DNA from: Acidobacteriota bacterium
GTDB taxonomy: Bacteria > Acidobacteriota > Vicinamibacteria > Vicinamibacterales > 2-12-FULL-66-21
NCBI GenBank assembly: GCA_016184105.1
Contig: JACPDI010000007.1
Span: 69,287-133,286 of the forward strand
Direction: 5' to 3'
Length of the DNA: 64,000 bases
Under the pieces are notes generated by a model that saw nothing but the letters and a program-made list of their open reading frames with translations, was not told the origin of the DNA and did no database searches. The number at the start of each line of letters is the position of its first letter. The stretch's first letter is position 1. A program made the position numbers and the translations under genes. Below are positions 24,942 to 55,134 of the stretch, piece by piece.

Positions 24942-26497
24942 TCAGAGCACGTACTGCTTCGCCAGCGATGTGAACGCCGCGACCTCGCGGCGCTGCCACC
25001 CTTCGTCACGCTTCAGCTCCCGTGCCATCAGCCGTGCCACTTCCGGCGCCATGCGCGTGGCGGCAGCGGCGTCGAGAAACAGCGCGCGGCACCGGCGCGC
25101 CAGCACGTCCTCCACGGTTCGCGCCATCTCGACGCGCGTGCTCCACACGACCTCCGCGCCCGTGTGTGGCAGCGCCGCATCCAGCGGCTCGGCCAACTCC
25201 GGATCGATCCGCATCAAATCCTGGATCGCCAGCGCGTCAGACCCGTAGACGCTGAGGGGGCCGAAACGTTCGGCGTGGGGGTGAAAGCCGTGGATGTTCA
25301 GCGTCCTGGTCACGCACGGCTTCTCGGGCAGGCGCGCCAGCTCGATCGCCTGGTTCACCGTGTCCTCCGCCATGTGCCGGTACGTCGTCCACTTGCCGCC
25401 GGTCGTGGTAAGGAGTCCGGACCGATCGATGTGGATCGTGTGATCGCGCGAGAGCGCCGCCGTGATCCGCGGATCGCCGCTCCGCACGAGCGGCCGGATT
25501 CCGACAAACACGCTCAACACATCGTCGCGCGTGGGCGCTTTGTGCAGATACCGCCCGGCGGTCTCCAGCACGAACTCGATCTCCGCCTCGCGCGCCACGG
25601 GCTCCAACGTGGGCTCGTCGATCGGCGTGTCCGTCGTGCCGACCAGCGTGTGGCCGTGCCAGGGAATGGCGAACATCACGCGGCCGTCGCGCGTGTGGGG
25701 CACCATGATGGCGCTGCGGCCCGGAAGGAACGACCGATCGAACACCAGGTGGATACCCTGGCTCGGCGCGATGAGCGCGGGAGCGCCTGGATCCGAGAGC
25801 TTCCGAACGGCGTCCGAGAACGGGCCGGCCGCGTTGATGACCACCTTGGCCCGAACGCGCAGCTCGCCACCCGACTCCAGGTCCCTCGCCACGACGCCGT
25901 CGAGCAGGCCGTCGCTCCCCCGCGTGACCGCGACGACCTGCGCGTAATTGATCAACGTTGCGCCTTGCTCGGCGGCGGTCTGCGCGAGGCTCACCAGCAG
26001 GCGCGAATCGTCGAACTGGCCGTCGTAATAGACGACGCCGCCGCGCAGGCCGTCCGTCTTGATCGTCGGCAGCCGCTCGAGCGTCTGCTCGCGCGTGAGG
26101 ATCTCCGAATTGCCGAACCCGTACTTGCCGGCGAGCAGGTTGTAGACCTTGAGGCCGACCCCGAAGAAGGGCGCCTCCCACCAGTCGTAATTCGGCACGA
26201 CGAACGGCAGGTTGCTCACCAGGTGCGGCGCGTTCTGCCGGAGAACGCCGCGCTCTTTGAGCGCTTCCATGACGAGCGAGATGTTTCCCTGCTCGAGATA
26301 GCGGACGCCGCCGTGCACCAGCTTCGTGCTCCGGCTCGAAGTGCCCTTTCCAAAGTCGTGCTGCTCGAGGAGCAGCACGTCGCAGCCGCGCGATGCTGCG
26401 TCCACGGCAATGCCCACGCCCGTCGCTCCGCCGCCGACGATGACGAAGTCCCATTCGGGTTTCTGCTGCCGGAGCCGCCCGAGCATCTCGTCGCGGT

Positions 26498-26501
<4 letters not shown>
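24942..26501 (-). CDS. glpD: FAD-dependent glycerol-3-phosphate dehydrogenase
   Basis: The start MNRDEM shares an ATGA overlap with the glpK stop. It has the dinucleotide fold [13 protein letters not shown] and the C-terminal GlpD-type helical domain. Confidence 0.9.
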
Positions 26502-28033
<1,532 letters not shown>

Positions 28034-28046
28034 CCCGGAGCGTTGA

Positions 28047-28868
28047 ATGGCGCAGCAGCCGCAGAGCATCGTCCGAGAGGTCCTCGCCGAATTTCTGGGT
28101 ACGTGCGTGCTGATTCTCTTCGGCGCGGGGGTCGTCGCGCAGTTTCTCCTGAGCGCCACGACCGCCGGAAGTTACCTGTCCATCAACATCGCCTGGGGGC
28201 TCGGGGTCACCATGGGCTGCTACGTCGCCGGCGGCGTGTCTGGTGCCCATCTCAACCCCGCGGTCACGCTGGCGCTCGCCGTCCACCGCGGCTTTCCGTG
28301 GCGCAAGGTCCTGCCTTACACCGCGGCGCAGACAGCCGGCGCGTTTGTCGCGTCGATCGTGGTCTTTGTGACGTATCACGAGGCGTTCGCGGCGTTCGAT
28401 GGCGGCGTGCGCCAGGTGCTCGGCGCGCAGGGGACGGCGGGAATCTTCGCCACCTACCCGCGTCCTTTTCTGAGCACGTTTCCCGGGGGATTCATCGACC
28501 AGGTGGTGGGCACGGCGATCCTGATGGGCGTCATCTTCGCCATCTCCGACGCTCGCAACGTGCCGCCGCCCGCAGGGCTCGCGCCGCTGATGGTGGGTTT
28601 GCTGGTCGTCGGGATCGGTGCTTCGTTCGGCTTCAACTCTGGTTACGCGATCAACCCGGCGCGCGACTTCGGTCCGCGGCTGTTCACGGCCGTCGCCGGC
28701 TGGGGAATGGAAGTCTTCCGCGCAGGCAACTCCTGGTGGTGGGTGCCGATCGTCGGTCCCTGCATCGGCGCGGTCGCCGGAGGCTGGGTGTACGACGCGC
28801 TCGTCGGTGGCCGTCTCCCGGCGGTCAACGCCGCGGGCGTCGAGGAAACTGGTCGGGATTATCCGTAA
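28047..28868 (+). CDS. glpF: Aquaglyceroporin / glycerol uptake facilitator (MIP family)
   Basis: It has two NPA boxes (HLNPAVT, INPARD) and six hydrophobic helices. It is divergent from glpK. Confidence 0.92.
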
Positions 28869-29742
28869 ACACGGCGTCGACTCCATAGTCGTACAGAAAC
28901 TTTTCCATTTCCGCGCGAACGTCCGGGAACGATCCCGTGTTCGACGAGCGGAAGGTCCATGGCGTGACGGTGAGGCCCGCGGCGTGCGCCCACGAGACCA
29001 CGTCCGGCCGCGCGGAGACGATCGTCTTGTTCGGCCCGAGGCCGGTGGCCCACGTGGCAATCTCCTTCATCTTCCCGGGCGAGTCCACGCGGTGCGTCGC
29101 ACCCGGATCGACGAGAAACACGCGCGGGATCGCCGGAAGGTCCCTGGCAAGGTGCTTGAGCGTCGTATCGTCGAACGACTGGATGATGATCGGTGTCTTC
29201 GCGTCGGGAAGGGCGTTCTTCTTCAGGATCTCCGCCAGCAGCGTCTCCGGGCTCACGCCCCGCCGGCGGTAGAACTCCGGATCCTTGAGTTCCGGGTAAA
29301 GGCCGGCCTTTCCCTTCACCAGATCGATCGCTTCCTGGAATGTCGGGATGCGTGCCCCGGTGTACTTCTTGTCGAACCAGGCACCGGCGTCCAGCGTCTT
29401 GAGCTCGGCGAGCGTGAAGTCGCCAACAAGCCAGCGCCTCACCGCCGCCCCGCTCCCCTTCTGCTCGACGAACCGATTCGGAAACACGTCTTCGACGTTG
29501 GTGGTCCGCTCGAGCGTCAGGTCGTGGATACAGACCAGCACGCCGTCCTTCGTGACCGCGAGGTCCTGCTCGACGAAATCGGCCCCCTGCGAAAGAGCGA
29601 GCGTGTAGGCGTCGATCGTGTGCTCGGGCGCATACGCGGACGCGCCGCGATGGGCCACGAGCTGCTTCGTCGCCCCGGGCTGCCGGCCGCTGACCGCCAC
29701 AACTGCAAGCATAAGCGCGCACACCGTCAGAGCCGTTCGCAT
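28825..29742 (-). CDS. glpQ: Secreted glycerophosphodiester phosphodiesterase
   Basis: I chose the start MRTALTVCALMLAVVAV (signal peptide). It has HRGASAYAPEHT and FVEQDL GDPD motifs. It overlaps the glpF 3' end convergently by 44 nt. Confidence 0.85.
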   Translation of the reverse strand: MRTALTVCALMLAVVAVSGRQPGATKQLVAHRGASAYAPEHTIDAYTLALSQGADFVEQDLAVTKDGVLVCIHDLTLERTTNVEDVFPNRFVEQKGSGAAVRRWLVGDFTLAELKTLDAGAWFDKKYTGARIPTFQEAIDLVKGKAGLYPELKDPEFYRRRGVSPETLLAEILKKNALPDAKTPIIIQSFDDTTLKHLARDLPAIPRVFLVDPGATHRVDSPGKMKEIATWATGLGPNKTIVSARPDVVSWAHAAGLTVTPWTFRSSNTGSFPDVRAEMEKFLYDYGVDAVFTDNPDQFPRRPRR

Positions 29743-30029
29743 GGATATGTGGACGCGAAAAAGAGGAAGCGCATTTCTGCGCCTCCCCTTGCGCCTCGTG
29801 CGGGGAATAGCGCCACGCCCGCCGCGACCGCCAGCGCGATGGCGAGCCAGATGCCCGGAGGCACCAGCAGCCACGCCGGATCGGGGCACGGTCATGGCGA
29901 GCCCGTTGATCCAGGTGGCGGGCACGTCCACCGCGCGCTCGCCTGCGAGCCGCGTATGAGTCAGGGGGGATTATAGACACGGGGAGAAGGAAAAAGGGAA
30001 AACGCAAAAGGCAAAAGCAGGGCCTGTCG

Positions 30030-30197
30030 TTACCCGCGCGAGGTTTCCTGCGCGGCGCGCCGGGCGTCAATCTCCCGCTGCCCGCGGAGAATCGAGCACC
30101 ACGGCTTATGGTCGTGCACGGGCATGCCGCATTCGACGCAGACGTGAATCCGCTTGGGCGGCTCCCCCCTGCCAATCAGGCGTTTCCAGAATGTCAT
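30030..30197 (-). CDS. 55-aa Cys/His-rich small protein (possible zinc-ribbon); not in the ORF track
   Basis: My translation is MTFWKRLIGRGEPPKRIHVCVECGMPVHDHKPWCSILRGQREIDARRAAQETSRG*. A GGAGAGGG RBS lies 6-8 nt upstream of the ATG at 30197. It sits 88 nt downstream of the small cytochrome-like gene on the same strand. Confidence 0.45.
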   Translation of the reverse strand: MTFWKRLIGRGEPPKRIHVCVECGMPVHDHKPWCSILRGQREIDARRAAQETSRG

Positions 30198-30285
30198 CGG
30201 TCCCTCTCCAGTCCCTCGCCCCGGCCACCGGGCCAGGTGCCCTGTGTTCGAATACGAGGGACGGAGAGGGAGGGTTCCACGGCAG

Positions 30286-30708
30286 CTACTGGCGGCTCGC
30301 CGCCAGCTTGTACTCGTAGAGTTCCTTCTTGCGGATCTTGGAGTCGTAGACCGCGAACTCGTAGATCTCCATGGCGTCGGCCGGGCTGATCATGGCGCGC
30401 CCCGCCCGGCGCATCATGCGCTTGATGTAGCGCTCCCAGTCGTCCTCGAGCACGAAGTCGCAGTTGACCGCGCGCGCCAGCGGGTGGCACTTGCCGCCGC
30501 ACCGGTCGGCGAAGATCTTGTACTTGCGCTTCATCTCGGGCGTGTATTTCGACACGTCAATCTTGTCCGGCCCGGCGTCCCACGAGATCACCTTCTTGTC
30601 GAGCGGGCGGTCGTCGTAGATCTGCGAGCCGATCACCCGGACCGACACGGCGGCCGTCAGGACCATCGAGACGAACACCATTGCCACCAGTACCTGCTTC
30701 ACGGTCAT
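30286..30708 (-). CDS. Small membrane-anchored protein with CX3CH motif (putative variant monohaem cytochrome), paralogue 1
   Basis: It has a GGAGGA RBS, the N-terminal TM segment MTVKQVLVAMVFVSMVLTAAV, and the motif CGGKCH followed by PLARAVNCDFVLEDDWERYIKRMMRR. Confidence 0.7.
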   Translation of the reverse strand: MTVKQVLVAMVFVSMVLTAAVSVRVIGSQIYDDRPLDKKVISWDAGPDKIDVSKYTPEMKRKYKIFADRCGGKCHPLARAVNCDFVLEDDWERYIKRMMRRAGRAMISPADAMEIYEFAVYDSKIRKKELYEYKLAASRQ

Positions 30709-30742
30709 CCTCCGAACGTGAATGTGTTGACGGGGTCGTGCG

Positions 30743-31156
30743 CTACTCCGATCCCTGTTCCTTCAGCCGGCGCTCGTACAGCTCGCGCTTGCGGACCTTC
30801 GCATCAAAGACCGCGAACTCGTAGGACTCGAGCGCCTGCGCCGGCGTGATGAGCGAGCGGCCGCGGCGCATCATCCGCTTGATGTACCGCTCCCAGTCGG
30901 CTTCGAGGACGAAGTCGCAGTTGACGGCGCGCGCCAGCGGGTGGCACCGCGCGCAGAGGTCTTCGAAGGTCTTGTACTTCTTCCTGATGTCCGGCGGGTA
31001 CTTCGACACGTCGATCTTTCCCGGGCCGCTGTCCCACTGCACGATCAGCGGATCGATCTGTCGTGCCGCGCCGGACTGTTGTGCCTGTGCGAGCAGCAGC
31101 CGCGCGGGCATCGCGAGGGCCATTATCAATACGGCTGCAGACAGAATCCGGGGCAT
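30743..31156 (-). CDS. Small secreted protein with CXXCH motif (putative monohaem cytochrome), paralogue 2
   Basis: It has a GAGGAG RBS and a signal peptide ending in LLLAQA. The motif CARCH is followed by PLARAVNCDFVLEADWERYIKRMMRR, and the core aligns residue-for-residue with paralogue 1. Confidence 0.7.
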   Translation of the reverse strand: MPRILSAAVLIMALAMPARLLLAQAQQSGAARQIDPLIVQWDSGPGKIDVSKYPPDIRKKYKTFEDLCARCHPLARAVNCDFVLEADWERYIKRMMRRGRSLITPAQALESYEFAVFDAKVRKRELYERRLKEQGSE

Positions 31157-31173
31157 GTGCGTCTTCTCCTCAC

Positions 31174-31193
31174 GGGTGGCCGTCCGGCCACCC
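31174..31193 (-). other. Intercistronic stem-loop (8-bp GC stem, 4-nt loop) between the barrel gene and the small cytochrome-like gene
   Basis: On the + strand gggtggcc gtcc ggccaccc is a perfect inverted repeat. The RBS and ATG of the next gene follow directly. Confidence 0.5.
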
Positions 31194-31201
31194 TCAACTC
31201 C

Positions 31202-33376
31202 TTACCACGTCCAGATGAACCGCACGGCGGCGGACTTCGCGGTGTACGGCCGCAGGACGTAGCCCAGCAGGAGGCTGCCCGGCAGGTCGATCCGGTTCAG
31301 CGTCTCTGGGCTCATGGCAAAATCGTCCACGTCGTACCTGTCGTACCAGCCGAGCAGCCCGATCGCGACCCGGCGCGACAGGTGGAACCGCAGATCGCCG
31401 GTCGCAGACGTCAGGTCGTGAGTGATCGCCGGCAGCTGTACCGGCGCCACCAGCGTGCTGTCGGCCGGCAGCCGATACACGTACGTCGCGCGCGAGCGCG
31501 AGTCGTCGAACGACATGCTGACGTCGACCCTCGGCAACAGCCTGAGGAGATCCAGGGAGAAGCCGATCGTCTCGGTGCGGTCGGCGCTGTCGGTCGCCCA
31601 GTCGCGCCGGTGATCGACGATGAGCGCGGTGCCCGGCACCAGGGTGGAGTGCGAGTTCTGCAGCGCCGCAAAGCGCTCGTTCGTGTACGACACGCTCGCC
31701 GCGACACGCGACCCCGGCGTGATGTCGGCGGTCACGGTGTACGACTTGTTCTCGTTGTTCCTCAGCCCCAGGGCGCTGTTCAGGTAGTCGTCCTTCCCGT
31801 ACGACGCGGACGCCGTCAGGCCGAAGGCGTCCACCGGCGCCAGCTGGATCAACGCCGTCACGCGGTCGCGGTCGCGATCGGCGACGTCGAAGTGGCGGAG
31901 CCCGAGCTGTTCGGTCGCCGAGAGCAGCAGATGCTCGTCGAAGCCGGATCCCCGCCGCTGCGAGCGCTCGAGGATCGCGCGGACGGTCACGAAGCCGGCC
32001 GACGAGTCGACCGACGCGCGCACGAGGTCCTCAGTCGTCTTCTGGAAGATGCGGAAGGTGCGATCGTCGGTGTTGCGCGAGTACCCGATCCGCATCGCGG
32101 TGAGCGGCACGGGCGTGAACGACGCGTCGGCGTCGAAGTTGTAGCGCGTGAAGCTCAGGGGTTCGGTCTCGGCACCCTCGTGCACGGTCTGGTCGAACAC
32201 GACGTCGATCGGGGTGTGGAACACGGGCGTGCGATTGTCGAAGTCGTAGGATCGGAACCGTGCGCTGAGGAAGACATACCGCGTCGGCTGCGAGGTGAAC
32301 CCGACGTTGGTCGCCACCGTCCGCGCGTCCCCTTCAAGCGTCTCGCGGGGCAGCGGCGCCGCGGGCACCGCGGTGTTGATCGTCACCGGCAACAACTGCG
32401 CGTCCTGGGTCCACGCGCCGAACGTCATGCTGGCCGTCACGCGGCTGTTGGCCGGCAGCTTCGCCGTGCCGGACGCGGTGATCCCCTGCATGCGGCTGTC
32501 GGGCGGCATCGCCATGCGCCCGCGCGATCCGCCGAGCCCGTTCGAGTAGTTGTTGGAGGCGGTCGAGTCGGTGAGCTTCAGCGGGTTGTCCCACACCAGC
32601 GTGGGCACGTTGTTCTCGAACGCCGATCCCTGGTAGCCCACGCGCACCATGCCGCGCGCGTTGGCCCACTCCACGCCGCCGCTCACGTCGGTCGTGCGCG
32701 TGTCGAGCGGCGCCATGACCTCGACGACGTCCGCGAAGCCGAATGACGCGGTCTGCGGGTACGTCCCGTCGCGCCGTGTGTGCTTCACGCCGAGGCTCAC
32801 GGTGAGCTCGCGTGTCGGGCTGTACGCCAGGTCGACCCTGGCGATATCACGCCGGGAGGTGGCAGCCATCGGCGACGCCGCGCCCGCCGACTGCGACAGG
32901 GTCGCGCGTCCCGCCTGGATCGCCGCGCGCATCGCATCGTCCAGGCGCAGCACGCCTGGCGACTCGCTCGTGTAGAGCGTGCGCGTGTCGCCGCTGATCC
33001 AGAGCGGGATCTGGTCCCACTCGACGGACACGCGGACCTTCGATCCGTTGCGGAAGGTGGCGGACAGCCGCCGGTCTTCCGCGCTCAGATGGTCGCCGCT
33101 GGCATTGAACGTCCAGCCGGTCCCCTGGCGATCGAGCGTGAAGTGCTCGACCACGAGGCCGTCACTGAAGTCGCGGTACCGCTGGAAGCGGTACTTGTCG
33201 CCCGTGACATCGGTGAAGCGGCTGCCGGCGTCGAACGACGCGGCGAAGCCCTGCGGCGCGGCGAGCTGCGCGGCGGAGGGAACGAAGATCTGCTGGCCGG
33301 GGTCGTTCTGCTGCGCCGAGGCCGCCGCGCCCGTGAGAAGAAGTCCGGCTGCGACAAACGTCAGTGGGGTGCGCAT
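31202..33376 (-). CDS. MtrB/PioB-family outer-membrane beta-barrel (decahaem-associated porin)
   Basis: The start MRTPLTFVAAGLLLTGAAASAQ (signal peptide) lies 17 nt after the cytochrome stop. The roughly 724-aa product has alternating beta-strand character and a C-terminal aromatic end (...RFIWTW). The track ORF extension to 34189 overlaps the cytochrome gene in another frame and is rejected. Confidence 0.75.
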   Translation of the reverse strand: MRTPLTFVAAGLLLTGAAASAQQNDPGQQIFVPSAAQLAAPQGFAASFDAGSRFTDVTGDKYRFQRYRDFSDGLVVEHFTLDRQGTGWTFNASGDHLSAEDRRLSATFRNGSKVRVSVEWDQIPLWISGDTRTLYTSESPGVLRLDDAMRAAIQAGRATLSQSAGAASPMAATSRRDIARVDLAYSPTRELTVSLGVKHTRRDGTYPQTASFGFADVVEVMAPLDTRTTDVSGGVEWANARGMVRVGYQGSAFENNVPTLVWDNPLKLTDSTASNNYSNGLGGSRGRMAMPPDSRMQGITASGTAKLPANSRVTASMTFGAWTQDAQLLPVTINTAVPAAPLPRETLEGDARTVATNVGFTSQPTRYVFLSARFRSYDFDNRTPVFHTPIDVVFDQTVHEGAETEPLSFTRYNFDADASFTPVPLTAMRIGYSRNTDDRTFRIFQKTTEDLVRASVDSSAGFVTVRAILERSQRRGSGFDEHLLLSATEQLGLRHFDVADRDRDRVTALIQLAPVDAFGLTASASYGKDDYLNSALGLRNNENKSYTVTADITPGSRVAASVSYTNERFAALQNSHSTLVPGTALIVDHRRDWATDSADRTETIGFSLDLLRLLPRVDVSMSFDDSRSRATYVYRLPADSTLVAPVQLPAITHDLTSATGDLRFHLSRRVAIGLLGWYDRYDVDDFAMSPETLNRIDLPGSLLLGYVLRPYTAKSAAVRFIWTW

Positions 33377-33393
33377 GCTGTCCTCTCTTCGCC

Positions 33394-34572
33394 TCACCGC
33401 TCGAGGTACTGGCCAGACGGGTGGTTCGACCCGTGGAGATTCGGGTGGCAATTGACGCAGGCGCGTCCGACCAGCCGGTTGTTGCGGTTGGCGAGCGCCA
33501 CGCGGTCGTAGATCGTCGCCGGGTGTCGCGACACGATGTGGCAGCGCTGGCAGAGCATCGGGGCCTTGGCCACGAGCATCCGGTCGTTCGAAGAGCCGTG
33601 CGCGTCGTGGCAGGTCGCGCAGCTCTCCCGCACGGGCGCGTGCTCCCACATGAACGGGCCGCGCTTCTCGGCGTGGCAGCTCAGGCAGGATTCGTTGATC
33701 GTGTTGCCCGCCTTCAGCAGGCGCACGTTCGTCGTGCCGTGCGGGCCGTGGCAGGAGGTGCAGTCCATCTTGCCCTCGCGCACCGGCATGTGCGCCGAGC
33801 GCTGGAGCTTCGCGGCCTTCTCGCGGTGGCATCGCGCGCAGGTGGCGACAATCGTCGCCCCGCGCAGGTGGCCGTCCGTGGATTTCGGATCGTGGATGCT
33901 GTGGCAGCCGGCGCACGGCACGTTGCGCGAGGCATGCACGCTGCCCTGCCACTGCGCGTGCTCGCCGCGGTTGTGGCACGAGAGGCAGAACTCGCTGGCC
34001 TCGCGCGGCGACATCTTGACGAACGGGCGCAGCAGGAGCCCTTTCTCCGCCGGCTCGTCGTCGTGCGCCTGGCCCGGGCCGTGGCAGGTCTCGCAGCCGA
34101 GCGACGCGGCCGGCGTCCGCTCGTCCCACTCGCGGCCGTGCGGCCCTTCGCGGTACGCCTTCAACTGCTTCATGTGGCACCGCGCGCACTTCGCCGTGCC
34201 CGTGTAGGTGAACCTGCGCGTCCGGGGCGCGTCCGGCTCCTCGTCATCGGCCTCGAAAGGATTCGTCGGCTTGGCCGCCTTCTGTCCCGGCGCCGCGCCC
34301 TCTTCTTCCTCTTCTTCCTCCTCGTCCGGATCGAGAAATGGATTGCGTTTCGGCTCCGGCGCGGGCGCCGGTTCCGGTGCGGACGGCGCGGGCTTCGGCG
34401 CCGCCTGGCCCGATGGCGGCGGCTGCGGCGGTGGCGTCTGCGGGGCGGAGAACGCCAGGCTCACCATCGCGGCAAAAGTCCAGCAGATGACCCCCGCGAC
34501 GATCGCGACAGCCGGACGGCTCGGCACCCGCCGAAGCAGGTGCGCCCTCGCGGGCGTGTTGGATGGCGTCAT
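33394..34572 (-). CDS. Periplasmic decahaem c-type cytochrome, MtrA/DmsE/PioA family
   Basis: I counted ten CXXCH motifs: CARCH, CETCH, CLSCH, CAGCH, CARCH, CTSCH, CLSCH, CATCH, CQRCH and CVNCH. It has the family-typical C-terminus HGSNHPSG. I chose the start MTPSNT (GAGGAG RBS, signal peptide). Confidence 0.9.
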   Translation of the reverse strand: MTPSNTPARAHLLRRVPSRPAVAIVAGVICWTFAAMVSLAFSAPQTPPPQPPPSGQAAPKPAPSAPEPAPAPEPKRNPFLDPDEEEEEEEEGAAPGQKAAKPTNPFEADDEEPDAPRTRRFTYTGTAKCARCHMKQLKAYREGPHGREWDERTPAASLGCETCHGPGQAHDDEPAEKGLLLRPFVKMSPREASEFCLSCHNRGEHAQWQGSVHASRNVPCAGCHSIHDPKSTDGHLRGATIVATCARCHREKAAKLQRSAHMPVREGKMDCTSCHGPHGTTNVRLLKAGNTINESCLSCHAEKRGPFMWEHAPVRESCATCHDAHGSSNDRMLVAKAPMLCQRCHIVSRHPATIYDRVALANRNNRLVGRACVNCHPNLHGSNHPSGQYLER

Positions 34573-34620
34573 GATGTGCTCCTCGCGCCGCAGGCCGATG
34601 CGAGCGCGGAAGGATGGAGG

Positions 34621-34636
34621 GCAACTGCCGTGCCTC
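34621..34636 (-). promoter_or_regulatory. Sigma-54 (-24/-12) promoter upstream of the decahaem cytochrome gene
   Basis: The minus strand reads GAGGCACGGCAGTTGC, that is GGCACG-N4-TTGC with exact GG-N10-GC spacing. The GC element is 49 nt upstream of the ATG at 34572. Confidence 0.65.
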
Positions 34637-34774
34637 CCTGTTTGCGGTGGCATCGACTCAGACAACCTGTTTGCCCGTCAGCAGTTGCGAGCGGCAAGTG
34701 GCCGCGGCGCGGTGCGTGCGCTGGCACGGCACGTCCGTGGTTCGGATTCGCGTCCAGATCCGGGACGAGCGGGT

Positions 34775-36175
34775 TCACGCCGCTGCCAGCCTTTCGGCCC
34801 TCGTGGCCACGTCCCGGAACTGGGGACCGACCTCCGCGAGCAATTCGCGATAGACACCGAGTGCCTGCGACTCCTGGCCGATCGCCTCGAGCGTCAGGGC
34901 GAGCTGATAGGCAAGCTCGTGCCCGCCTTCCTCCGTGGCTGGCGGCACCTGCGCGACCCACTCGAGGCACGCAAGCGCGTCCATCGGGGCGCCGCGATCG
35001 CGGTACACGCCCGCGAGGCGCGAGCCGGCGCTCGCGCGCAGGTGCGGCGCGCACATGGCTTCCTCGAGCGATGCGACTGCCGCGTCGAACTGCTGCGACT
35101 CGATCAGGCGCTCCGCCTCCGTGAGCCGCTCCTCCGCGGCAGCCGCCGCCTCTTCGATGAGCGCCGTGCGAATCTCCTCGAAGGCCGAGTCCACGTCGCT
35201 CGCCGGTGCCGGCTTGGGCGGGACGTCCGGCACCGCTTCGCTGACGTCTCGTGCCCGGCTGACCCGCGCCAGCAGCCCGCGATGCGCGGCGGCGTCGGGC
35301 TCGCGCTCGGTCAGATCGACCGCGATGTTGTAGGCCTGTTCCGTGCGCCCGCAGTCGTAGCACGCGCCCGCGAGGCGCGCCTGCGCCGAGATGAGCGCGC
35401 GGTCGAGCCGCCCCTCGACGCCGACGTCGATGAGCTTCTCGAGCGCCTCGATGTGCTGCGGCTGCGAGGCGAGGAACTGCTCGATCGCCGACACGGCGCC
35501 GGTGAAATTGCGACGCGCCACTTCGCCGTCGGCCGCGAGGATCACCTGGCGGAAATCGTACAGGTCGTCATCGACTGCCACCGCCGGTGACGGGTCCGGC
35601 GCCGGCACGACACCGGACTCGACCGCCTCCTGATCAGGCGCCAGGACCGCCGCCCACTCGTCCGCCCACTCGCTGGAACTCGCGGGCATCGCCGCCGCCG
35701 CCGGAACGTCGCGCGGCGGCGGCGGCGCGGGCAGCCGTGTCTCCTCGACGCGCATCGGCTCCGGCGGAGCGTCCGGCTCCACGACCGCGCTCTCGCGTGC
35801 GGCCCTCGCGGTCTCGAGTACCCGTTTGAGGAACGGGCTGACCTGGGCCGATTCGTTGCGCTCGAGTTCGTCCACGCGGCGGCGGGCGGTCTCGTTGTCA
35901 GGCTGGATGCGAAGAATCTTCCGATAGAGGGCGCGCGACTTCGCCGCGAACCCGTCGGCCGCCAGGTGCTCGGCAAGCGACGTGAAGTGCGCGATGGCGG
36001 CGTCCGCCTTGCCGGTGCGAATGTACAAATCCCCCAGCGTGTTGCCGATGCTCCAGTCCTTCGAATCGTTCTGAAACAACTTTTCGTACAGTGTGACCGC
36101 GCCGTCCAGGTCGCCGCGCGTGACGAGGCGGGCCGCCTTGTCGACGAGATCGGAGCGATCCAGGGCGCGAGCCAT
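34775..36175 (-). CDS. TPR-repeat protein
   Basis: The start MARALDRSDL lies 2 nt after the upstream stop. It has repeated TPR-like helical pairs at both ends (GDLDGAVTLYEKL..., ALACLEWVAQ...) and a Pro/Ala-rich middle. Confidence 0.7.
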   Translation of the reverse strand: MARALDRSDLVDKAARLVTRGDLDGAVTLYEKLFQNDSKDWSIGNTLGDLYIRTGKADAAIAHFTSLAEHLAADGFAAKSRALYRKILRIQPDNETARRRVDELERNESAQVSPFLKRVLETARAARESAVVEPDAPPEPMRVEETRLPAPPPPRDVPAAAAMPASSSEWADEWAAVLAPDQEAVESGVVPAPDPSPAVAVDDDLYDFRQVILAADGEVARRNFTGAVSAIEQFLASQPQHIEALEKLIDVGVEGRLDRALISAQARLAGACYDCGRTEQAYNIAVDLTEREPDAAAHRGLLARVSRARDVSEAVPDVPPKPAPASDVDSAFEEIRTALIEEAAAAAEERLTEAERLIESQQFDAAVASLEEAMCAPHLRASAGSRLAGVYRDRGAPMDALACLEWVAQVPPATEEGGHELAYQLALTLEAIGQESQALGVYRELLAEVGPQFRDVATRAERLAAA

Positions 36176-36177
36176 GT

Positions 36178-37161
36178 TCACACTGCCGCGGCCACCCGGC
36201 CGTCCGCGTCCTGCGGCACGGCGCCGGGACCCGCGATGATGGCGTCGACATCCAGCAAGGCGACCGCGTCGCCCGCGACCGAGAAGATTCCGCGCGTGAA
36301 CCACTCGCGGCGCTCGACCTCAGCGTGCCGCCGATCGGCCGCGGTCGCACGATGGAGCGCGACGTCCGCCCCGACGCGGAACGCGAAGAAGCCGCCGCGG
36401 CCGCGACCTCCGGATCGCGCCACCAGGAACCGTTCCGAGCCGTTGACGTCCGCGCCGTGTTCCCCGTTGAACCGCAGGATCGGCACGGCGTGGTCCCGCC
36501 ACCATCCGACCGCATGGATGTGCGGCGCCGCACCCGGCAGCGGGATCCAGGGCAGCGACTGGACGATGCCTCCCACGCGATCCGCGGCCAGGGCGTACCT
36601 CGCTGCGTGCACGCTCGGCAACGCGGCGCTCGTGAACGTCAGCGCCATGCCGGAGGCGACCGCACCCGTCCTCCCGCCCGCTGGCTGCGCGATCGGCGGC
36701 GTGGCGCGGCGCGGCGCGGCGGGCGCCAGCGGATCGATGCCCCGTGGCGAGAGAACGAGGCAGAACACGACGTCCCCCATCCGCAACAGCCCGTCGAACC
36801 ACGCCGAGGGCGTCGCGCCGGCCGCCGCGGGGAGCGGCAGCAGCGCGGGCGATCCGGCAGGAGTGCGCACGATGCGATCGACGAGCAGGCCGAACGACTC
36901 GCCGTCGCCTCGCGTCACGATGACGTAGCGGTCGGCGACCGACGACTCGGGCGCGCGTCCGAACAGTCCCGACAGGCCGTAGACCGGCAGCGTTTCGGCG
37001 CCGTACCGCAACGTGCCGACGCGGTTCGCAGGCCCCGCCCCTTTCTTCACGTATTCCGCGCGGGCGACGACGCGGATGTCGGCGCCGGCGAGCGCGTACT
37101 GTTCCATTCCCACGACGCAGCAGATGAAGCCACCAAGTCCGGATTTCCGTTCACCTGTCAT
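36178..37161 (-). CDS. CheW-like coupling protein with two CheW-type domains (ChpC position)
   Basis: It shares an ATGA overlap with the cheB stop. It has two segments resembling the CheW fold (...YALAGADIRVV...LVDRIV... and ...YALAADRVGGIV...). Only the last 327 codons of track ORF 36178-38154 are used. Confidence 0.65.
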   Translation of the reverse strand: MTGERKSGLGGFICCVVGMEQYALAGADIRVVARAEYVKKGAGPANRVGTLRYGAETLPVYGLSGLFGRAPESSVADRYVIVTRGDGESFGLLVDRIVRTPAGSPALLPLPAAAGATPSAWFDGLLRMGDVVFCLVLSPRGIDPLAPAAPRRATPPIAQPAGGRTGAVASGMALTFTSAALPSVHAARYALAADRVGGIVQSLPWIPLPGAAPHIHAVGWWRDHAVPILRFNGEHGADVNGSERFLVARSGGRGRGGFFAFRVGADVALHRATAADRRHAEVERREWFTRGIFSVAGDAVALLDVDAIIAGPGAVPQDADGRVAAAV

Positions 37162-38219
37162 GACGACTGCCCCCGCATGGCGAGCATCGAGCCGATGACA
37201 TCGGGCGTGCCGACGAAGTCGGCGCCCGCGCGTTCGAGCGCCTGCGTCGGCATGCTGTCGATCACGCAGCTCGAGGGCTCCTGCACGTACGCGTCGCCGC
37301 CGCGCTGCCGCACGCGCTTCAGCCCCTCGGCCCCGTCGCGCCCCATGCCTGACAGCACGACGCCCACGCTCGATGCGCCGTAGCTTTCCGCCGCCGAAAC
37401 CATCGCGAAGTCGATGGAGGGCCGGTACAGTTCCTCTTCTGCCGTCGGCCGCAATTCCAGCCGGCCTCCGGGGCGCACCAGCAGGTGGCGCGAGCCGGGC
37501 GTGACGATGATCGATCCGCGGGCGAGCCCGACCCCCGCGTCCGCCTCTCGGACCGGCAAGCGGGCATAGCGCCCAAGTTCCGCGGCGAAGGCGGTCGTAA
37601 ACGTCGCGGGGAGGTGCTGGACCACCACGCAGGGGATCCGGAAATCGGACGGCAGCTGCGCGAGGAGCTCGCGGAGCGCCGCCGGACCGCCCGTCGAGGC
37701 CCCGATCACGATGATCCCTTCGTGACCTGGCGCGGTCCTCGGGCCGTGCAGGCGCCCGCGCGGGTCGGGGTGACGGACGGGCGGACGCGCGACGGCCCGT
37801 TCCGGTTTCCGCGCATGGCGCGGCCGGACGGTGGCGGCCGTCATGACCTTGCTCACGATCTCCCTGCGCAGCGTCGCGGGGCTGACGGGCGCGCCCGGCG
37901 TGTACTTCAGGACGAAGTCCACCGCTCCCACCTCCAGCGCCCGCAGCGTCGTCGCGGCCGCGCGGCGCGACACGCCGCTCACGACCACGACGGCGGCGGA
38001 GGTTTCGGCCACGATTTGCCGCAGCAGCCCGAGGCCTTCGGCTCCAGGCATCTCGAGGTCCAGCGTGAGCACGTCGGGCGACGTGCGGCGGACGAGATCC
38101 ATCGTCGACGCCGCGTTGTGCGCGGTGCCGACCACCTCGCAGTCGCCGGCGCACTCGAGGTACGAGGCCAGCAGGCGGCAGGTGAATGCCGAGTCGTCGG
38201 CGACGGCCACTCGGATCAC
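37158..38219 (-). CDS. cheB: Protein-glutamate methylesterase CheB (REC + methylesterase)
   Basis: It has the REC motifs IRVAVADDS and DVLTLDLEMPG, and the esterase motifs IGASTGGP, HLP..FT and GMGRDG. Confidence 0.9.
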   Translation of the reverse strand: MIRVAVADDSAFTCRLLASYLECAGDCEVVGTAHNAASTMDLVRRTSPDVLTLDLEMPGAEGLGLLRQIVAETSAAVVVVSGVSRRAAATTLRALEVGAVDFVLKYTPGAPVSPATLRREIVSKVMTAATVRPRHARKPERAVARPPVRHPDPRGRLHGPRTAPGHEGIIVIGASTGGPAALRELLAQLPSDFRIPCVVVQHLPATFTTAFAAELGRYARLPVREADAGVGLARGSIIVTPGSRHLLVRPGGRLELRPTAEEELYRPSIDFAMVSAAESYGASSVGVVLSGMGRDGAEGLKRVRQRGGDAYVQEPSSCVIDSMPTQALERAGADFVGTPDVIGSMLAMRGQSS

Positions 38220-41137: not shown

Positions 41138-41997
41138 GGCCGTACCTCTCTGCTCACTCGGCCGACGCGCCGGAACGCCCGGACGCCGGGCAGCGCGACC
41201 GGTTCCAACCCCGCCGGGCACTCGAACGGCGCTTCACCGGGGCCGAGGAGGAGATACCCTCCCGGCGTGAGCCGTGACCCCAGCATCGCGACGAACGGTG
41301 TGACCGCCGGCGGCGCGAAATAGATCAGGACGTTCTGACAGAAGATGACGTCGTGGTTGAGAAAGATGTCGCACGCCGAATAGAGATTGATCGCGAGAAA
41401 CCGCACACGGCGGCACAGCTCCGGATCGATGCCCCATGCCCCGCCGCCCCCGGCGGCTCGAACGAACTTCCGGCGGTACTCGGCCGGGATCGCCGACACG
41501 GCCTTCTCGCTGTACCGCCCGATCCGCGCCGCTTCCACGGTGCGGCGGCTGATGTCGGCCCCCCACACCAGGAACTCTCCGCCGAATGCCGGATCCGACA
41601 TCGCCGTCATCGCGAGCGAGTACGCCTCCTCGCCCGTGGAGCATCCCGCGCTCCACAAACTGAGGAGGTTCCGCCCGATGTCCGGCCGCCGCCGCAGCTC
41701 CGGCAGGATGTGCGTGCGCAGCGCCTCGAATGACGGCGGGTGGCGGAAGAACGAGGTTTCGTGGCTGATCAGCTGATCGATCAGCTCCGTCCACTCGCTC
41801 CCCCCCTTGCTCTCCTCCTCGAGCAGCTCGTAGTACTCGTCGCAGCTGGCCAGCCCGCGCGCGCGCATCCGCGCGGGCACGAGGCCGGCGAGCGCCGAGA
41901 GCTGCGGCTCCCGCAGCGCGAGCCCGCAGTGCCGCAGGAGCAGGTCGCCCCACGGCCCGCAGGACTCCGTGTCGGCCGGCGTCGGGAAGCCGATCAT
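41134..41997 (-). CDS. cheR: Chemotaxis protein methyltransferase CheR (PilK position)
   Basis: It has [12 protein letters not shown], the SAM-binding motif [17 protein letters not shown], and [11 protein letters not shown]. Confidence 0.9.
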
Positions 41998-44937: not shown

Positions 44938-44964
44938 TGGCCTCTCCTTGAGCATTCGCGCGGT

Positions 44965-46735: not shown

Positions 46736-46742
46736 GACGGCC

Positions 46743-46772
46743 CTGCCGGGGCAACCATCATGCCCCCGGCAG
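46743..46772. other. Stem-loop (9-bp perfect stem CTGCCGGGG/CCCCGGCAG, 12-nt loop) in the NtrC-REC intergenic region
   Basis: Read directly. On the minus strand it ends 8 nt before the ATG at 46735. Confidence 0.5.
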
Positions 46773-46872: not shown

Positions 46873-48243
46873 TCACACTTCAGTCCAGATTCTGGACGAC
46901 TTCAGCTTCTGGTACATCGTGCTGCGCGGAATCCCGAGCCGGCGCGCCGTGCGCGGCACGTTGCCCTGCTCTTCTTCCAGCACGCGCTTGATGTGCTGCC
47001 ACTCCAGTTCTTTCAGCGTGCTCGCGTTGGTCGCCGGCATCCCCTTGGCCGGCGGGCAGAACAACCGCAGGTCCGCGCGGCGCAGCACCGGCGACGAGGC
47101 CAGGAGCACGGCGCGCTCGAGCACGTTGCGCAGCTCGCGGACGTTGCCCGGCCACGTGTGGGCGACGAGCGCCTGCTCCGCATCGGGGCCGAGCTGCGGC
47201 ACGGGACGCCGGATGTCGCGCGCCAGCAGCGCGAGCAGGTGCTCGGCGATGGCCGGCACGTCCTCGACGCGGTCGCGGAGCGGCGGCAGCCGCAGCACCA
47301 CCGTGTTAATCCGGTAGTAGAGATCCTCGCGGAAACGTCCTCCAGCAACGAGCCGCGACAGATCGTGGTTGGTCGCCGCGATGAACCGGAGATCGACGCG
47401 TCGCTCGGCGACGTCGCCGAGCCTCCGGAAGCGCTTCTCCTCGACCACCTTCAGCAGCTTCGGCTGCAGCGACATGTCCATGTCGCCGATCTCGTCGAGG
47501 AACATCGTTCCCCGGTGCGCCGCCTCGAGCAGCCCGGGCTTCATGCCGGTCGCCCCGGTGAAGGCGCCCCGCTCGTGCCCGAACAGTTCAGACTCGAGCA
47601 GCTCGCGGGGCAGCCCCGCGCAGTTCAGCTCCACGAGCGACTCGCGCGAGCGGCTGCTCGACTGGTGGATCCACCGGGCCAGCACCCCCTTGCCGGTGCC
47701 CGTCTCCCCTTCGATGAGCACCGGGACCTCGCTCGACGCGACCGACCGCGCGTCGCGCGCCAGCGCCCGCATCGCGGCACTGCGGCACGCGAACAACACG
47801 TCCACCGGCGTCTCGACCCCGCGCGAGCGCGTGGCGTACAGGCGCCGGGAGTTCTGCTGGTGCTCGATGAGGCGCTCGATCAGCACCACGAGCGATCCCA
47901 GCTCCACCGGCTTGGTCAGAAACTGCTCGGCTCCTTCCTTGATGGCGGTGACGGCAAGCTCGATCGACCCGTGTCCCGTCAGCACCAGGACCGGCACGTC
48001 GACGGCATCCGCTTTCAGCCGCTTGAGGAGGTCAACGGCGTTGCCATCGGGGAGCGCGTAGTCGAGCAGCACGACGTCGGGAACGTCCACGTCCAGGCGC
48101 GCGCGCGCGGCTGCGCACGTGTCCGCCTCCTCGACCTCGTAGCCGGTGGCCTCCAGGTACGAGCGCACGCCCAGGCGCACGCTCGCATCGTCATCGACCA
48201 GCAGGATACGGCTCTTCAACACGGGTGACTCCTTGAGCGACAC
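46873..48243 (-). CDS. Sigma-54-dependent response regulator (NtrC family: REC - AAA+ - Fis-type HTH)
   Basis: It has ILLVDDD and VLLDYALPDG, Walker A GETGTGKG, the GAFTGA loop (ERGAFTGA), ESELFGHE, RFREDLYYRIN, and the C-terminal HTH RTARRLGIPRSTMYQKLK. Confidence 0.93.
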   Translation of the reverse strand: MSLKESPVLKSRILLVDDDASVRLGVRSYLEATGYEVEEADTCAAARARLDVDVPDVVLLDYALPDGNAVDLLKRLKADAVDVPVLVLTGHGSIELAVTAIKEGAEQFLTKPVELGSLVVLIERLIEHQQNSRRLYATRSRGVETPVDVLFACRSAAMRALARDARSVASSEVPVLIEGETGTGKGVLARWIHQSSSRSRESLVELNCAGLPRELLESELFGHERGAFTGATGMKPGLLEAAHRGTMFLDEIGDMDMSLQPKLLKVVEEKRFRRLGDVAERRVDLRFIAATNHDLSRLVAGGRFREDLYYRINTVVLRLPPLRDRVEDVPAIAEHLLALLARDIRRPVPQLGPDAEQALVAHTWPGNVRELRNVLERAVLLASSPVLRRADLRLFCPPAKGMPATNASTLKELEWQHIKRVLEEEQGNVPRTARRLGIPRSTMYQKLKSSRIWTEV

Positions 48244-50314
48244 GGACCTGGCGTTCGGGCGGCGTGAGCGGCAGCGAGACGGTCACGATCGCGCCACCCT
48301 CCGGATGGTTCGCCGCGGCGGCGGTGCCGCGGTGCTCCGCGACGATCCGCTCGCTGATCGCGAGCCCGAGGCCGAAGCCTCCCGCCCGGCGGCTGAAGAA
48401 CGGCGCGAACACGCGGGGCAGATCCTCGGCCGCGAACCCACGCCCCCGATCGCGCACCGTGATGTCGACCAGCCTCGGGCGGGCGGGGGGACGCAGCGCG
48501 ACCGCCACGCTGACCGCCGCTCCGGCCGGCGAATGCTGAATGGCGTTCTGAATGAGGTTGATGAAGACGCGGACCAGCCGCCGGGAATCCATCCACACCT
48601 GGAGATCCGGAGCCGGCCCGGCGGCAACCCGCACGCCGTGCTGCTCCGCTTCGGGCGAGCAGGCGCGCACCGCCTCCTGGATGACCGTCGCCAGCGGCGA
48701 GGGCTGCAGCACGACCTTCGTCGGCCGCCCGTACTCGAGCAGTTCGGTCATCAGCGTGTTGACGCGCCCCACCTCGTGCCTCAGCGCGTCGAGGAACTGC
48801 GAGGGATCGCGGTTGGTCTGCACGGACCACGCGTCAACCAGCGACGACATGGCGAACAGCGGGTTCCGCACCTCGTGCGCCACGCCGACGACCACCGAGC
48901 CCAGCGCCGCCATCGTCTCCGAGCGGCGCAGCGACCGCTGCAGTTCGACGAGCGACGTGGTGTCGCGCGCCACGACGACGACCGACCCGCTCCCGTGCGG
49001 CGACCGGCACCAGAGATCCCACGTGCGGCCGGTCTCGGCGTGGTGTACGCGCGCCGCGGAAGCCTCCTGCGTTTCGACCGCCTCGCGCGCCAGCGCCAGC
49101 GCCGAGTCCCACGGCGGGTAGAACGCGAGCTCCTCGCTCGGCAGCCCCAGCCACGAGAACGGCTCGCCGGGCAGTGTGTCGGAGGCGACGCGGTTCATGC
49201 GCGCGATCTTCCCGAACGGATCGAGGACCATCAGCGCGGCGTCGATCGTGTCCACCGTGGTGCGCCATTCGACGGCCGCACTTTCGAGCCGCGCGTTGAG
49301 CGCCGTCAGCTCCGCGTGGCTGCGTTCGAGATGCTCGCGGCGCGCGGCTTCCGCCTCCGCCTGGATCCGGCGCCGCCGCTGCGCCCACGTCACCTGCATG
49401 ACCAGGCCAAGGGCGAGCAGCGTCGCGGCCATCAGGGCGGCAAGCTGCCGGAACTCGGCGCCGAGCACGCGCACCACGCTGTCGGCGGGCGCCATCAGCG
49501 CGGCGACCCAGCGCTCCCCCTCGAAGTCGAACGGCGCCACGGCGCCGAGGTGCTGTGCGCCGCGCAGCGAGTACCGGATCGCCCCGCGCGGCATCTCGAA
49601 CATGCGCTCGACGTGGTCGAACGACTGGTGACACGTGCGGCACAGCGGCGTGCGCCGCTTGATGTTGCGGAGGCGCATCTCCGGGTGCGCCGTTCGAAAG
49701 ACGACATTGCCGCGGCCGTCCAGGATCAGCCCGGCGACGGACGGATCGTCGAGCGTGGCCCCGGACCCGGACAGCAACGAATCCAGCTCCGACTCCGCCG
49801 CAAGGACACCGCCCGGGCCGCCGTGCGGGCCGGCCGCCGGCTCGCGGACCGGCGTGGCGAAGACCAGCGAGGGCGTGACGGCAGAGGACACCGCCGTTTG
49901 CATCCGGCCGGCGTTCGCCGGATCGCCGGCCCACCGCGCCTGCGCGTCAATCTCGGGGGAAGACAGGCCCGGCGACCGGCCGGCGGCGTAAGCCAGGCGG
50001 CCGTCCGCGCCGTAGAACGCGATCCCCACAAAGCACGGCGGTTCCGTGCAGCGGACCTGCTCGTCCAGCATCGCGCGGACCGACGCCACGTCGGGCTGGC
50101 GCGCGATGGCGCCCGACAGCGCGCGCAGCGTCCGGGCGGCGCCCGTCAGCTCGGCGCGCAGCGTGGCCGCCACCACGTCGGCCGTGTGGAGCTGGTGTTC
50201 CTGGAAATCCTCGATCGCGCGCGACTTGTTGTACGTGTGGAGACGCCAGCCGACGGCGACCGCCGACACCAGCACGCACGCAATGACACCGGACATGAAC
50301 CGGGACGTAAGCAT
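48191..50314 (-). CDS. Sensor histidine kinase with periplasmic domain carrying a CXXCH motif
   Basis: A GGAGGGGAG RBS precedes it. TM1 spans about aa 8-24 and TM2 about aa 285-310. CRTCH lies at aa 225-229 (nt 49628-49642), between the two TMs. A cytoplasmic PAS-like region follows, then the H-box AHEVRNPL and the HATPase motifs (NLIQNAIQHS, DRGRGF, GFGLGL). Confidence 0.88.
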   Translation of the reverse strand: MLTSRFMSGVIACVLVSAVAVGWRLHTYNKSRAIEDFQEHQLHTADVVAATLRAELTGAARTLRALSGAIARQPDVASVRAMLDEQVRCTEPPCFVGIAFYGADGRLAYAAGRSPGLSSPEIDAQARWAGDPANAGRMQTAVSSAVTPSLVFATPVREPAAGPHGGPGGVLAAESELDSLLSGSGATLDDPSVAGLILDGRGNVVFRTAHPEMRLRNIKRRTPLCRTCHQSFDHVERMFEMPRGAIRYSLRGAQHLGAVAPFDFEGERWVAALMAPADSVVRVLGAEFRQLAALMAATLLALGLVMQVTWAQRRRRIQAEAEAARREHLERSHAELTALNARLESAAVEWRTTVDTIDAALMVLDPFGKIARMNRVASDTLPGEPFSWLGLPSEELAFYPPWDSALALAREAVETQEASAARVHHAETGRTWDLWCRSPHGSGSVVVVARDTTSLVELQRSLRRSETMAALGSVVVGVAHEVRNPLFAMSSLVDAWSVQTNRDPSQFLDALRHEVGRVNTLMTELLEYGRPTKVVLQPSPLATVIQEAVRACSPEAEQHGVRVAAGPAPDLQVWMDSRRLVRVFINLIQNAIQHSPAGAAVSVAVALRPPARPRLVDITVRDRGRGFAAEDLPRVFAPFFSRRAGGFGLGLAISERIVAEHRGTAAAANHPEGGAIVTVSLPLTPPERQVRVAQGVTRVEEPYPAGR

Positions 50315-55100: not shown

Positions 55101-55134
55101 GCGATTCCGCGATCACGCGCACGCGATGACCGCT

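Follow-up and report, generated by a model that had tools for sequence, protein, structure and literature searches.

An MtrAB-type outer-membrane conduit operon with two small monohaem cytochromes in a Vicinamibacterales-like acidobacterium

The DNA analyzed here is a window of 64 kb on contig JACPDI010000007.1, a GC-rich stretch (about 0.63-0.73) from an Acidobacteriota metagenome-assembled genome (MAG), and this window was the search space. It contains the genes of a putative outer-membrane electron conduit, and all genes relevant to the conduit are located on the minus strand. Four co-directional genes encode a decahaem c-type cytochrome, a large outer-membrane β-barrel protein and two small single-haem cytochromes (Table 1). 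They are separated by gaps of 17, 45 and 34 nucleotides (nt), and each gene is preceded by a Shine-Dalgarno-like sequence, which reads GAGGAG ahead of the decahaem gene. A preliminary description of this DNA had recognized the decahaem cytochrome and the barrel and had proposed a conduit of the MtrAB/PioAB/MtoAB type. It overlooked the two cytochrome genes just 3' of the barrel gene, which have the same orientation.

Table 1: Features of the conduit locus and of its proposed regulatory region. Positions refer to the 64-kb window; bEBP, bacterial enhancer-binding protein; TM, transmembrane segment.
Feature	Position	Strand	Basis
Decahaem c-type cytochrome, MtrA/MtoA/DmsE-family homologue, 392 residues	33394..34572	-	TIGR03508, MtrA alignment, ten CXXCH
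MtrB/PioB-family outer-membrane barrel, 724 residues, 26 strands, no cysteine	31202..33376	-	PF11854, TIGR03509, AlphaFold, Foldseek
Small monohaem cytochrome 1, 137 residues, CARCH site	30743..31156	-	Family alignment; adjoins mtrB
Small monohaem cytochrome 2, 140 residues, paralogue 56% identical to cytochrome 1	30286..30708	-	Alignment
Strong stem-loop, 15 nt past the stop of the last cytochrome gene, probable operon end	30201..30271	-	RNA fold
Putative sigma-54-type -24/-12 element GGCACGGCAGTTGCC, 48 nt ahead of the ATG of the mtrA-like gene	34620..34634	-	Conservation, pattern search
Candidate bEBP site, palindrome CGTCCCGGATCTGGAC, centre about 126 nt upstream of the -24 (putative function)	34752..34767	-	Pattern search, conservation
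Second sigma-54-type element GGCATGATGGTTGCC, 17 nt ahead of the first gene of the Che-like cluster (response regulator)	46750..46764	-	Pattern search
Second palindrome copy CGTCCAGAATCTGGAC at the 3' end of the bEBP gene; its sigma-54 element is located about 126 nt downstream	46883..46898	-	Pattern search
NtrC-family sigma-54 activator (REC, AAA+, Fis-type HTH), candidate regulator of both promoters	46873..48282	-	Pfam
Sensor histidine kinase, 707 residues: TM, periplasmic dCache-like domain of about 265 residues with CRTCH, TM, kinase core	48191..50314	-	Sequence, dCache_1

The decahaem cytochrome contains exactly ten CXXCH motifs according to a regular-expression count, in agreement with the earlier count by eye. 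The profile hidden Markov model (HMM) TIGR03508 for DmsE-family decahaem cytochromes matched the protein over profile positions 1-258 of 258 with 254.5 bits and E=1.1e-75, well above the curated cutoff of 192.2 bits. A phmmer comparison with MtrA of Shewanella baltica (6r2q_A) gave E=2e-61 for residues 121-392, which represent the entire ten-haem domain. The C-terminus of the protein reads ...HGSNHPSGQYLER. The HGSNHPSG tail, which had been named as characteristic of the family, is present and is covered by the MtrA alignment. Ten haem motifs were also found in 116 of the 120 best homologues. Residues 1-43 are signal-like, with a basic stretch, a hydrophobic stretch and AFS/A (the slash marks the presumed cleavage). 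Judged from this sequence, the protein would be exported to the periplasm and covalently loaded with haem. No Ccm genes were found in the 64-kb window.

The barrel gene follows 17 nt 3' of the stop codon of the cytochrome gene on the same strand, and this adjacency was found in every related locus examined. Its product starts with the signal-like sequence MRTPLTFVAAGLLLTGAAASA/QQ (...AAASA/QQ) and ends with FIWTW. Thus, it is the large signal-peptide-bearing barrel with an aromatic end that had been described. The Pfam model PF11854 (MtrB_PioB) matched with 289.4 bits (cutoff 23, E=8.1e-86) and the MtrB/PioB model TIGR03509 with 241.4 bits (cutoff 240.05, E=2e-71), the latter being a marginal score. 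A sequence match to MtrB (6r2q_B) had an E-value of 1.7e-17. The structure of the barrel was predicted with AlphaFold as a single chain from an alignment of 60 homologues. The resulting model (predicted local distance difference test, pLDDT, 86.6) showed 26 long β-strands, the first two of which are separated by a short helix, as in the solved structure of MtrB (PMC7198977). A Foldseek search with this model returned MtrB (6r2q_B) as the top match with E=6e-37, TMq 0.80, TMt 0.88 and a root-mean-square deviation of 3.3 Å, the identity in the structural alignment being 17%. The next matches were TonB-dependent receptors with TM values of 0.42 or less. The protein does not belong to an unrelated porin family; MtrB is its sole close structural neighbour.

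Both proteins are present in the NCBI database with identical sequences from the same MAG, the cytochrome as MBI2219951.1 ("DmsE family decaheme c-type cytochrome") and the barrel, from the same contig of 139 kb, as MBI2219950.1 under an MtrB/PioB family name. The HMM scores, the MtrA and MtrB matches, the barrel model and these names bear out the conduit signature, and the pair is almost certainly a conduit of the MtrAB type. In the complex the cytochrome would be inserted inside the barrel. The pair itself is not new: it is an ordinary member of a large family and already annotated automatically. In the homologue search for the cytochrome the best 8000 candidates, ranked by shared words, were scored, and 6559 of these reached E<=1e-10. 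Homologues of mtrA and mtrB have been published for Acidobacteria including Luteitalea pratensis (PMC5900883), as have MtrCAB in Acidobacteriia (PMC8805035) and PioA/MtoA homologues in Acidobacteria (PMC10654088). L. pratensis belongs to the Vicinamibacterales, and close relatives of the window proteins carry the same label.

The two genes behind the barrel gene encode basic proteins with a mature isoelectric point (pI) of 9.1-9.2. Small cytochrome 1 (mature pI of about 9.2) possesses a signal-like N-terminus and an invariant WERYIKRMMRR block. The haem site of small cytochrome 2 is atypical, CGGKCH (CX3CH), and is kept as CGGKCH or CGGQCH in the orthologues P0096 and P0098. Its hydrophobic N-terminus shows no obvious cleavage site and resembles an uncleaved membrane anchor. 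No model of Pfam or NCBIfam matched either protein, and no match to the high-potential iron-sulfur protein (HiPIP) family was obtained. The proteins of this family comprise about 130-145 residues. We found 112 close homologues, 163 loci in species-representative genomes and 785 clusters (50% identity, E<=1e-3). In an alignment of 106 sequences the CXXCH motif (C68, C71, H72), the WERYxK block and the two residues M95 and M96 were invariant, and no second invariant histidine was found. Thus, the small cytochromes are probably His/Met-ligated monohaem c-type cytochromes. AlphaFold predicted an entirely helical structure (pLDDT 79). Some members of the family (P0358, P0396, P0492 and P0499) are tandem fusions with two to eight domain repeats and represent multihaem proteins.

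The gap of 200 nt between the mtrA-like gene and the upstream TPR gene is poorly conserved over five loci except for two blocks, a sigma-54-type element and a palindrome. The sigma-54-type element is the best conserved. Its geometry, GG-N10-GC, is that of sigma-54 promoters, and it occurs at the equivalent place in L001, L002, L006 and L008 and also ahead of the first gene of the L089 cluster. L001 and L008 have the palindrome in the same position, likewise spaced by 126 nt, and L002 and L006 have it with a single change. The stem-loop at the other end of the four genes has a folding energy of -52.6 kcal/mol (z = -3.78), and none of 200 shuffled sequences was as stable. Consensus scans of positions 29700-36400 for sigma-70 promoters and intrinsic terminators found nothing; the stem-loop was missing from the terminator scan because it has no T-tract. 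Judged by gene spacing, promoter and hairpin the four genes most probably form one transcription unit.

A six-frame scan of the 64 kb revealed no other open reading frame (ORF) of at least 50 codons with two or more haem motifs. Consequently, the window contains no gene of the MtrC/OmcA type or of the CymA/NapC type, as had been stated before, and none was seen in the loci of close relatives either. The preliminary description had regarded the partners on both sides of the conduit as undefined. For the periplasmic side this view is probably incorrect: the operon ends with two monohaem cytochrome genes, whose family links mtrAB in relatives to a module resembling alternative complex III (ACIII).

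A small cytochrome gene is located directly 3' of mtrB in the window and in L001-L004, L006, L008-L013, L020, L089 and L090. The close relatives L001, L002, L004, L006 and L008 have two or three tandem copies at this place. The same order was found in more distant Acidobacteriota and in one Latescibacterota genome. It is kept where the barrels are only 45-76% identical, and the downstream flank varies between genomes. In three related Acidobacteriota (L020 6358-16301, L089 3146-13207 and L090 7870-17919), with barrels 45-52% identical to that of the window, the conduit genes are part of a ten-gene supercluster. Its order is class I cytochrome c, MtrA, MtrB, small cytochrome, pentahaem cytochrome (ActA-like), Mo-like protein, iron-sulfur (FeS) protein, NrfD and tetrahaem cytochrome c, sometimes preceded by an OmpR-type two-component pair of response regulator and kinase. 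This arrangement looks like a conduit with a fixed connection to an ACIII-like quinone module. Literature searches turned up no description of such an MtrAB-small cytochrome-ACIII-like supercluster. In L091 genes for FeS protein, NrfD and cytochrome c are located ahead of mtrAB. On a contig of 5.35 Mb (L088, 9059-15385) mtrAB is followed by genes for a Rieske protein, a cytochrome b and a nonahaem cytochrome, an alternative coupling to the quinone pool.

The small cytochrome also occurs without mtrAB in Opitutaceae, Poribacteria, Elusimicrobia and others. Its gene then often adjoins ACIII-like genes or a cytochrome b gene, a context that marks the protein as a carrier in the periplasm. Since in relatives the family sits between mtrB and the ACIII-like quinone module, it is a probable periplasmic partner of the conduit. 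The simplest reading is that these proteins are carriers which dock with quinone-linked complexes and, in conduit operons, bridge them to the MtrA homologue. We consider it likely that the two small cytochromes of the window are partners of the conduit. In the lineage of the window the quinone module is not adjacent any more and the small cytochrome gene has been duplicated.

The first haem motif of the decahaem protein begins at residue 129, from where the ten-haem core extends. Residues 44-128 (window positions 34192-34443, minus strand) form an acidic, proline-rich extension of about 85 residues with a net charge of about -9. This extension contains KRNPF...EEEEEEEE and NPF...DDEE, i.e. short motifs of the K[KR][NS][PR]F type followed by runs of Glu and Asp. 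At least 90 residues precede haem 1 in 33 of the 120 best homologues, and 21 of these 33 have one to three K[KR][NS][PR]F motifs. The MtrA homologue of L020, the ACIII-linked version, lacks the N-terminal extension. It is possible, though speculative, that the acidic extension serves as an electrostatic tether for the basic small cytochromes.

The MtoAB-MtoD(-CymA/MtoC) systems of Sideroxydans lithotrophicus ES-1 and Gallionella, which oxidize Fe(II) and minerals, share with the window the decahaem cytochrome, the MtrB-family barrel and the lack of a surface cytochrome. They also possess one or more small periplasmic monohaem cytochromes, proposed as shuttles, in the cluster (PMC4412085, PMC5566968, PMC12016527), a likeness in architecture only. 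Precedents are MtoD in Sideroxydans (PMC4412085) and a Gallionellaceae genome in which mto is followed by genes for two small cytochromes c (PMC5566968). In contrast to MtoD, the small cytochromes of the window belong to another family, are present as two paralogues and are probably His/Met-ligated rather than bis-His-ligated. Furthermore, the window cluster differs from Mto by the absence of CymA/MtoC (no tetrahaem or nonahaem gene), by the acidic N-terminal extension and by its acidobacterial host. The PioABC system of Rhodopseudomonas palustris TIE-1 likewise is a two-component conduit without an extracellular cytochrome, with an N-terminal extension and a small carrier gene downstream (PMC6831781). 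PioA carries an extension of about 200 residues upstream of haem 1 with an internal hydrophobic region, which is cleaved, and PioC is a HiPIP (PMC6831781). The extension of the window protein differs from it in length, in its acidic, proline-rich composition and its K[KR][NS][PR]F motifs, and it has no second hydrophobic stretch; the carriers are c-type cytochromes instead of a HiPIP. A PioA-type N-terminal domain was rejected for this protein because the extension is too short and the internal hydrophobic region is absent.

With MtrCAB of Shewanella (6R2Q) the window shares the homologous ten-haem core including the HGSNHPSG end, the 26-strand fold and the helix between strands 1 and 2. Unlike the Shewanella MtrCAB/CymA system it has neither MtrC/OmcA nor CymA, and its barrel is only 17% identical and free of cysteine. 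The MtrCAB clusters of Group 5 Acidobacteriia (Baker et al. 2022, PMC8805035) also come from an acidobacterial host, lack an adjacent inner-membrane quinol oxidase and have a lineage-specific accessory cytochrome after mtrB. However, these clusters belong to Bryobacterales and possess MtrC and a periplasmic tetrahaem cytochrome, whereas the Vicinamibacterales-like window has no MtrC and an unnamed monohaem family. Quinone modules of the ACIII/Qrc type, with pentahaem, Mo-like, FeS and NrfD genes, follow conduit and small cytochrome in sister lineages; the module is absent from the window locus and its closest relatives, and the link comes only from gene context. As a whole the operon is a variation on the Mto/Pio theme. 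Added to this theme are shuttles of a family not described before, the unusual tether at the N-terminus of the decahaem protein and a probable connection to a chemosensory cluster through sigma-54.

We propose that the four-gene operon encodes an outer-membrane wire together with its own periplasmic shuttles, functioning in the manner of Mto and Pio with inward flow favoured, and assign to this reading a probability of about 0.6. The MtrA homologue would be exported and threaded through the 26-strand barrel, so that its haem chain would span the outer membrane. As no surface cytochrome of the MtrC/OmcA type is encoded, its outermost haem would meet the extracellular substrate directly, as in MtoAB and PioAB. 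On the periplasmic side the two basic monohaem cytochromes, one soluble-looking and one possibly tethered to the membrane, would shuttle electrons between the conduit and complexes of the inner membrane (ACIII-like, bc-type or an oxidase) that are encoded elsewhere in the genome. They would fill the role of MtoD or PioC. In the favoured direction Fe(II), reduced minerals or reduced humics would be oxidized and would feed a high-potential chain, the wire itself being reversible.

Several observations weigh against this reading. The barrel clears the TIGR03509 cutoff by a mere 1.35 bits. The sigma-54 element departs from the textbook sequence TGGCAC-N5-TTGCW at two positions, and a loose search with two mismatches was not enriched in the window (14 matches versus 19 expected). 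No inner-membrane partner is encoded inside the 64 kb. Fold matches of the small cytochrome to class I cytochromes were weak: SorB (2blf_B), the best, gave E=0.49, probability 0.95 and TMt 0.63, and cytochrome cz (3a9f_B) had an E-value no lower than 0.49. A search of the family profile against all PDB sequences gave nothing below E=0.1. MtoD or any other solved cytochrome was rejected as a homologue of the family, since neither profile nor fold searches yielded a significant match. Moreover, 12 fetched loci have the small-cytochrome family and an ACIII-like module but no mtrAB, and mtrA-like genes are located upstream in only about 15 of 80 representative-genome loci. This distribution, together with the wide occurrence of the family without mtrAB noted above, would agree with small cytochromes that are unrelated neighbours of a real conduit. 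They would then be ordinary carriers from ACIII or bc complexes to terminal oxidases, and the true periplasmic partner would be encoded elsewhere. We regard this as unlikely: the lineage of the window has lost the ACIII-like module from the locus, yet it keeps two or three small-cytochrome copies with mtrAB, and these copies have short gaps, one promoter ahead and one terminal hairpin behind.

The sequence does not give the direction of electron flow. We favour inward flow, at roughly even odds, because there is no surface cytochrome and no CymA and because the shuttles are probably high-potential His/Met cytochromes. ACIII, which is normally quinol-oxidizing, fits outward flow equally well. 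In that case quinol would be oxidized by an ACIII-like or bc-type complex and electrons would pass via the small cytochromes and the MtrA homologue to Fe(III), Mn(IV) or humics when oxygen is scarce, a CymA-independent respiration of the Mtr type. The ACIII and Rieske/cytochrome b modules beside mtrAB in relatives, normally quinol oxidases, agree with this direction. So do the homologous MtrAB of Shewanella, which runs outward (6r2q; PMC7198977), and surveys that list acidobacterial mtrA and mtrB as candidates for iron reduction (PMC5900883). It is nevertheless the less probable direction, though one to be taken seriously, since a surface cytochrome and CymA are both lacking and the barrel has not a single cysteine. 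The MtrB proteins of metal-reducing Gammaproteobacteria carry an N-terminal CXXC. The potentials of His/Met monohaem cytochromes would usually be too high for efficient reduction of a bis-His decahaem chain, and the known MtrC-less pairs MtoAB and PioAB run inward (PMC6831781, PMC12016527).

The name of the best NCBIfam model, DmsE, and the presence of a DMSO-reductase-family molybdoenzyme with an FeS subunit within the window (55219-59027) could point to a DmsEF-like conduit which feeds a dedicated extracellular terminal reductase, e.g. the molybdoenzyme, instead of minerals. However, the molybdoenzyme gene (55219-58176) lies on the opposite strand at a distance of 20 kb. Its product has no twin-arginine (Tat) signal and scores far below every curated cutoff, and none of the related loci examined has a reductase gene next to mtrAB. 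This assignment was rejected as highly improbable.

With regard to the control of the conduit operon, the extended motif GGCAYGnnnnTTGCC had two matches in the window versus 0.07 expected, and the palindrome pattern CGTCCNGRATCTGGAC (CGTCCnGRATCTGGAC) occurred exactly twice versus 0.00 expected. A co-directional series of genes on the minus strand (34775-50332) encodes the kinase, the NtrC-type activator, a REC protein, a TPR-REC protein, a CheY-like protein, a methyl-accepting chemotaxis protein, CheR, CheA, CheB, CheW and the TPR protein. CheA has two Hpt domains and a C-terminal REC domain, and the N-terminus of the TPR protein resembles SgmX. The cluster resembles systems of the Pil-Chp/Frz type, which serve surface motility and not flagellar chemotaxis. 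The activator matched the Pfam model Sigma54_activat with 217.7 bits and also Response_reg and HTH_8. Because both promoters share sites, this activator is a candidate regulator of the conduit operon. Probably, the conduit operon is transcribed from a promoter of its own, and the NtrC-family activator would control it together with the chemosensory cluster. Such co-regulation would explain why the genes for CheA, CheB, CheW, TPR protein, MtrA, MtrB and the cytochromes stay together in the sub-lineage while the downstream flank changes. A third, degenerate palindrome was found upstream of the kinase gene at 50627-50642; it is not followed by a canonical -24/-12 element. Linkage of Che-TPR genes as a general property of such conduits was rejected: it was observed only in close relatives (L001, L002, L006, L008 and one JGI contig) and is absent from L020 and L088-L091, where OmpR-type two-component genes or respiratory modules are found instead.

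The dCache_1 match of the kinase (E=0.0037) is below the gathering cutoff. Its haem motif is kept as CLACH in L092, the sole full-length relative found in a metagenome scan, and most relatives are without the sensor domain. The kinase may be a haem-c redox sensor, an attractive but tentative assignment. Wide conservation of the haem-bearing sensor domain and the palindrome was rejected, as the exact palindrome is absent from relatives whose bEBPs are 55-71% identical. In an extended scenario, which we think rather improbable, conduit operon and Pil-Chp/Frz-like cluster would form one sigma-54 regulon driven by the kinase with its haem-c dCache-like domain. Conduit and surface motility or taxis would then be induced together by the redox state of the periplasm or of the cell's surroundings, and the monohaem family would be a CymA-independent bridge between MtrAB-type conduits and ACIII-like complexes in several soil phyla. 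If true, a single regulon of this kind would mean mineral- or redox-directed behaviour.

Among the other genes of the window, an ORF of about 55 codons (30030-30195, minus strand; MTFWKRLIGRGEPPKRIHVCVECGMPVHDHKPWCSILRG...) with a zinc-ribbon-like CxxC...HxxxC pattern is located just past the terminal hairpin. Directly downstream of the conduit operon follows a set for glycerol and glycerophosphodiester utilization (24942-29931; GlpD-like, GlpK-like, GlpF-like and GlpQ (GDPD)), and this flank differs in every related genome. The molybdoenzyme encoded on the plus strand comprises 985 residues with an AhtL-like first domain and an unmatched N-terminus of 140 residues. It is followed by a 4Fe-4S subunit of 297 residues, and no membrane subunit is encoded. 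Divergent from the molybdoenzyme gene is a gene for an AlgE-like (Alginate_exp) outer-membrane porin (53536-55122, minus strand). A further ORF (52743-53312, minus strand) encodes only the AAA-lid and the Fis-type HTH of a sigma-54 activator; the ATPase core is absent and there is no room for it upstream. Either the gene has been truncated and this ORF is a remnant, or its product is a DNA-binding protein in its own right.

The mtrAB pair alone contributes nothing new to the MtrAB/MtoAB/PioAB family. The gain is an unnamed family of candidate periplasmic partners with its 785 sequence clusters. The recurring order of conduit, small cytochrome and ACIII-like module would explain MtrAB-type function without CymA, and the defined pair of promoter and palindrome predicts a regulator. 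The homologues found here come from soil and groundwater metagenomes. Vicinamibacterales-like Acidobacteriota are common in such metagenomes and are usually regarded as aerobic heterotrophs. The complete conduit and its shuttles suggest that these bacteria can exchange electrons with humics or iron minerals, an ability that would affect the cycling of iron and carbon in soil.

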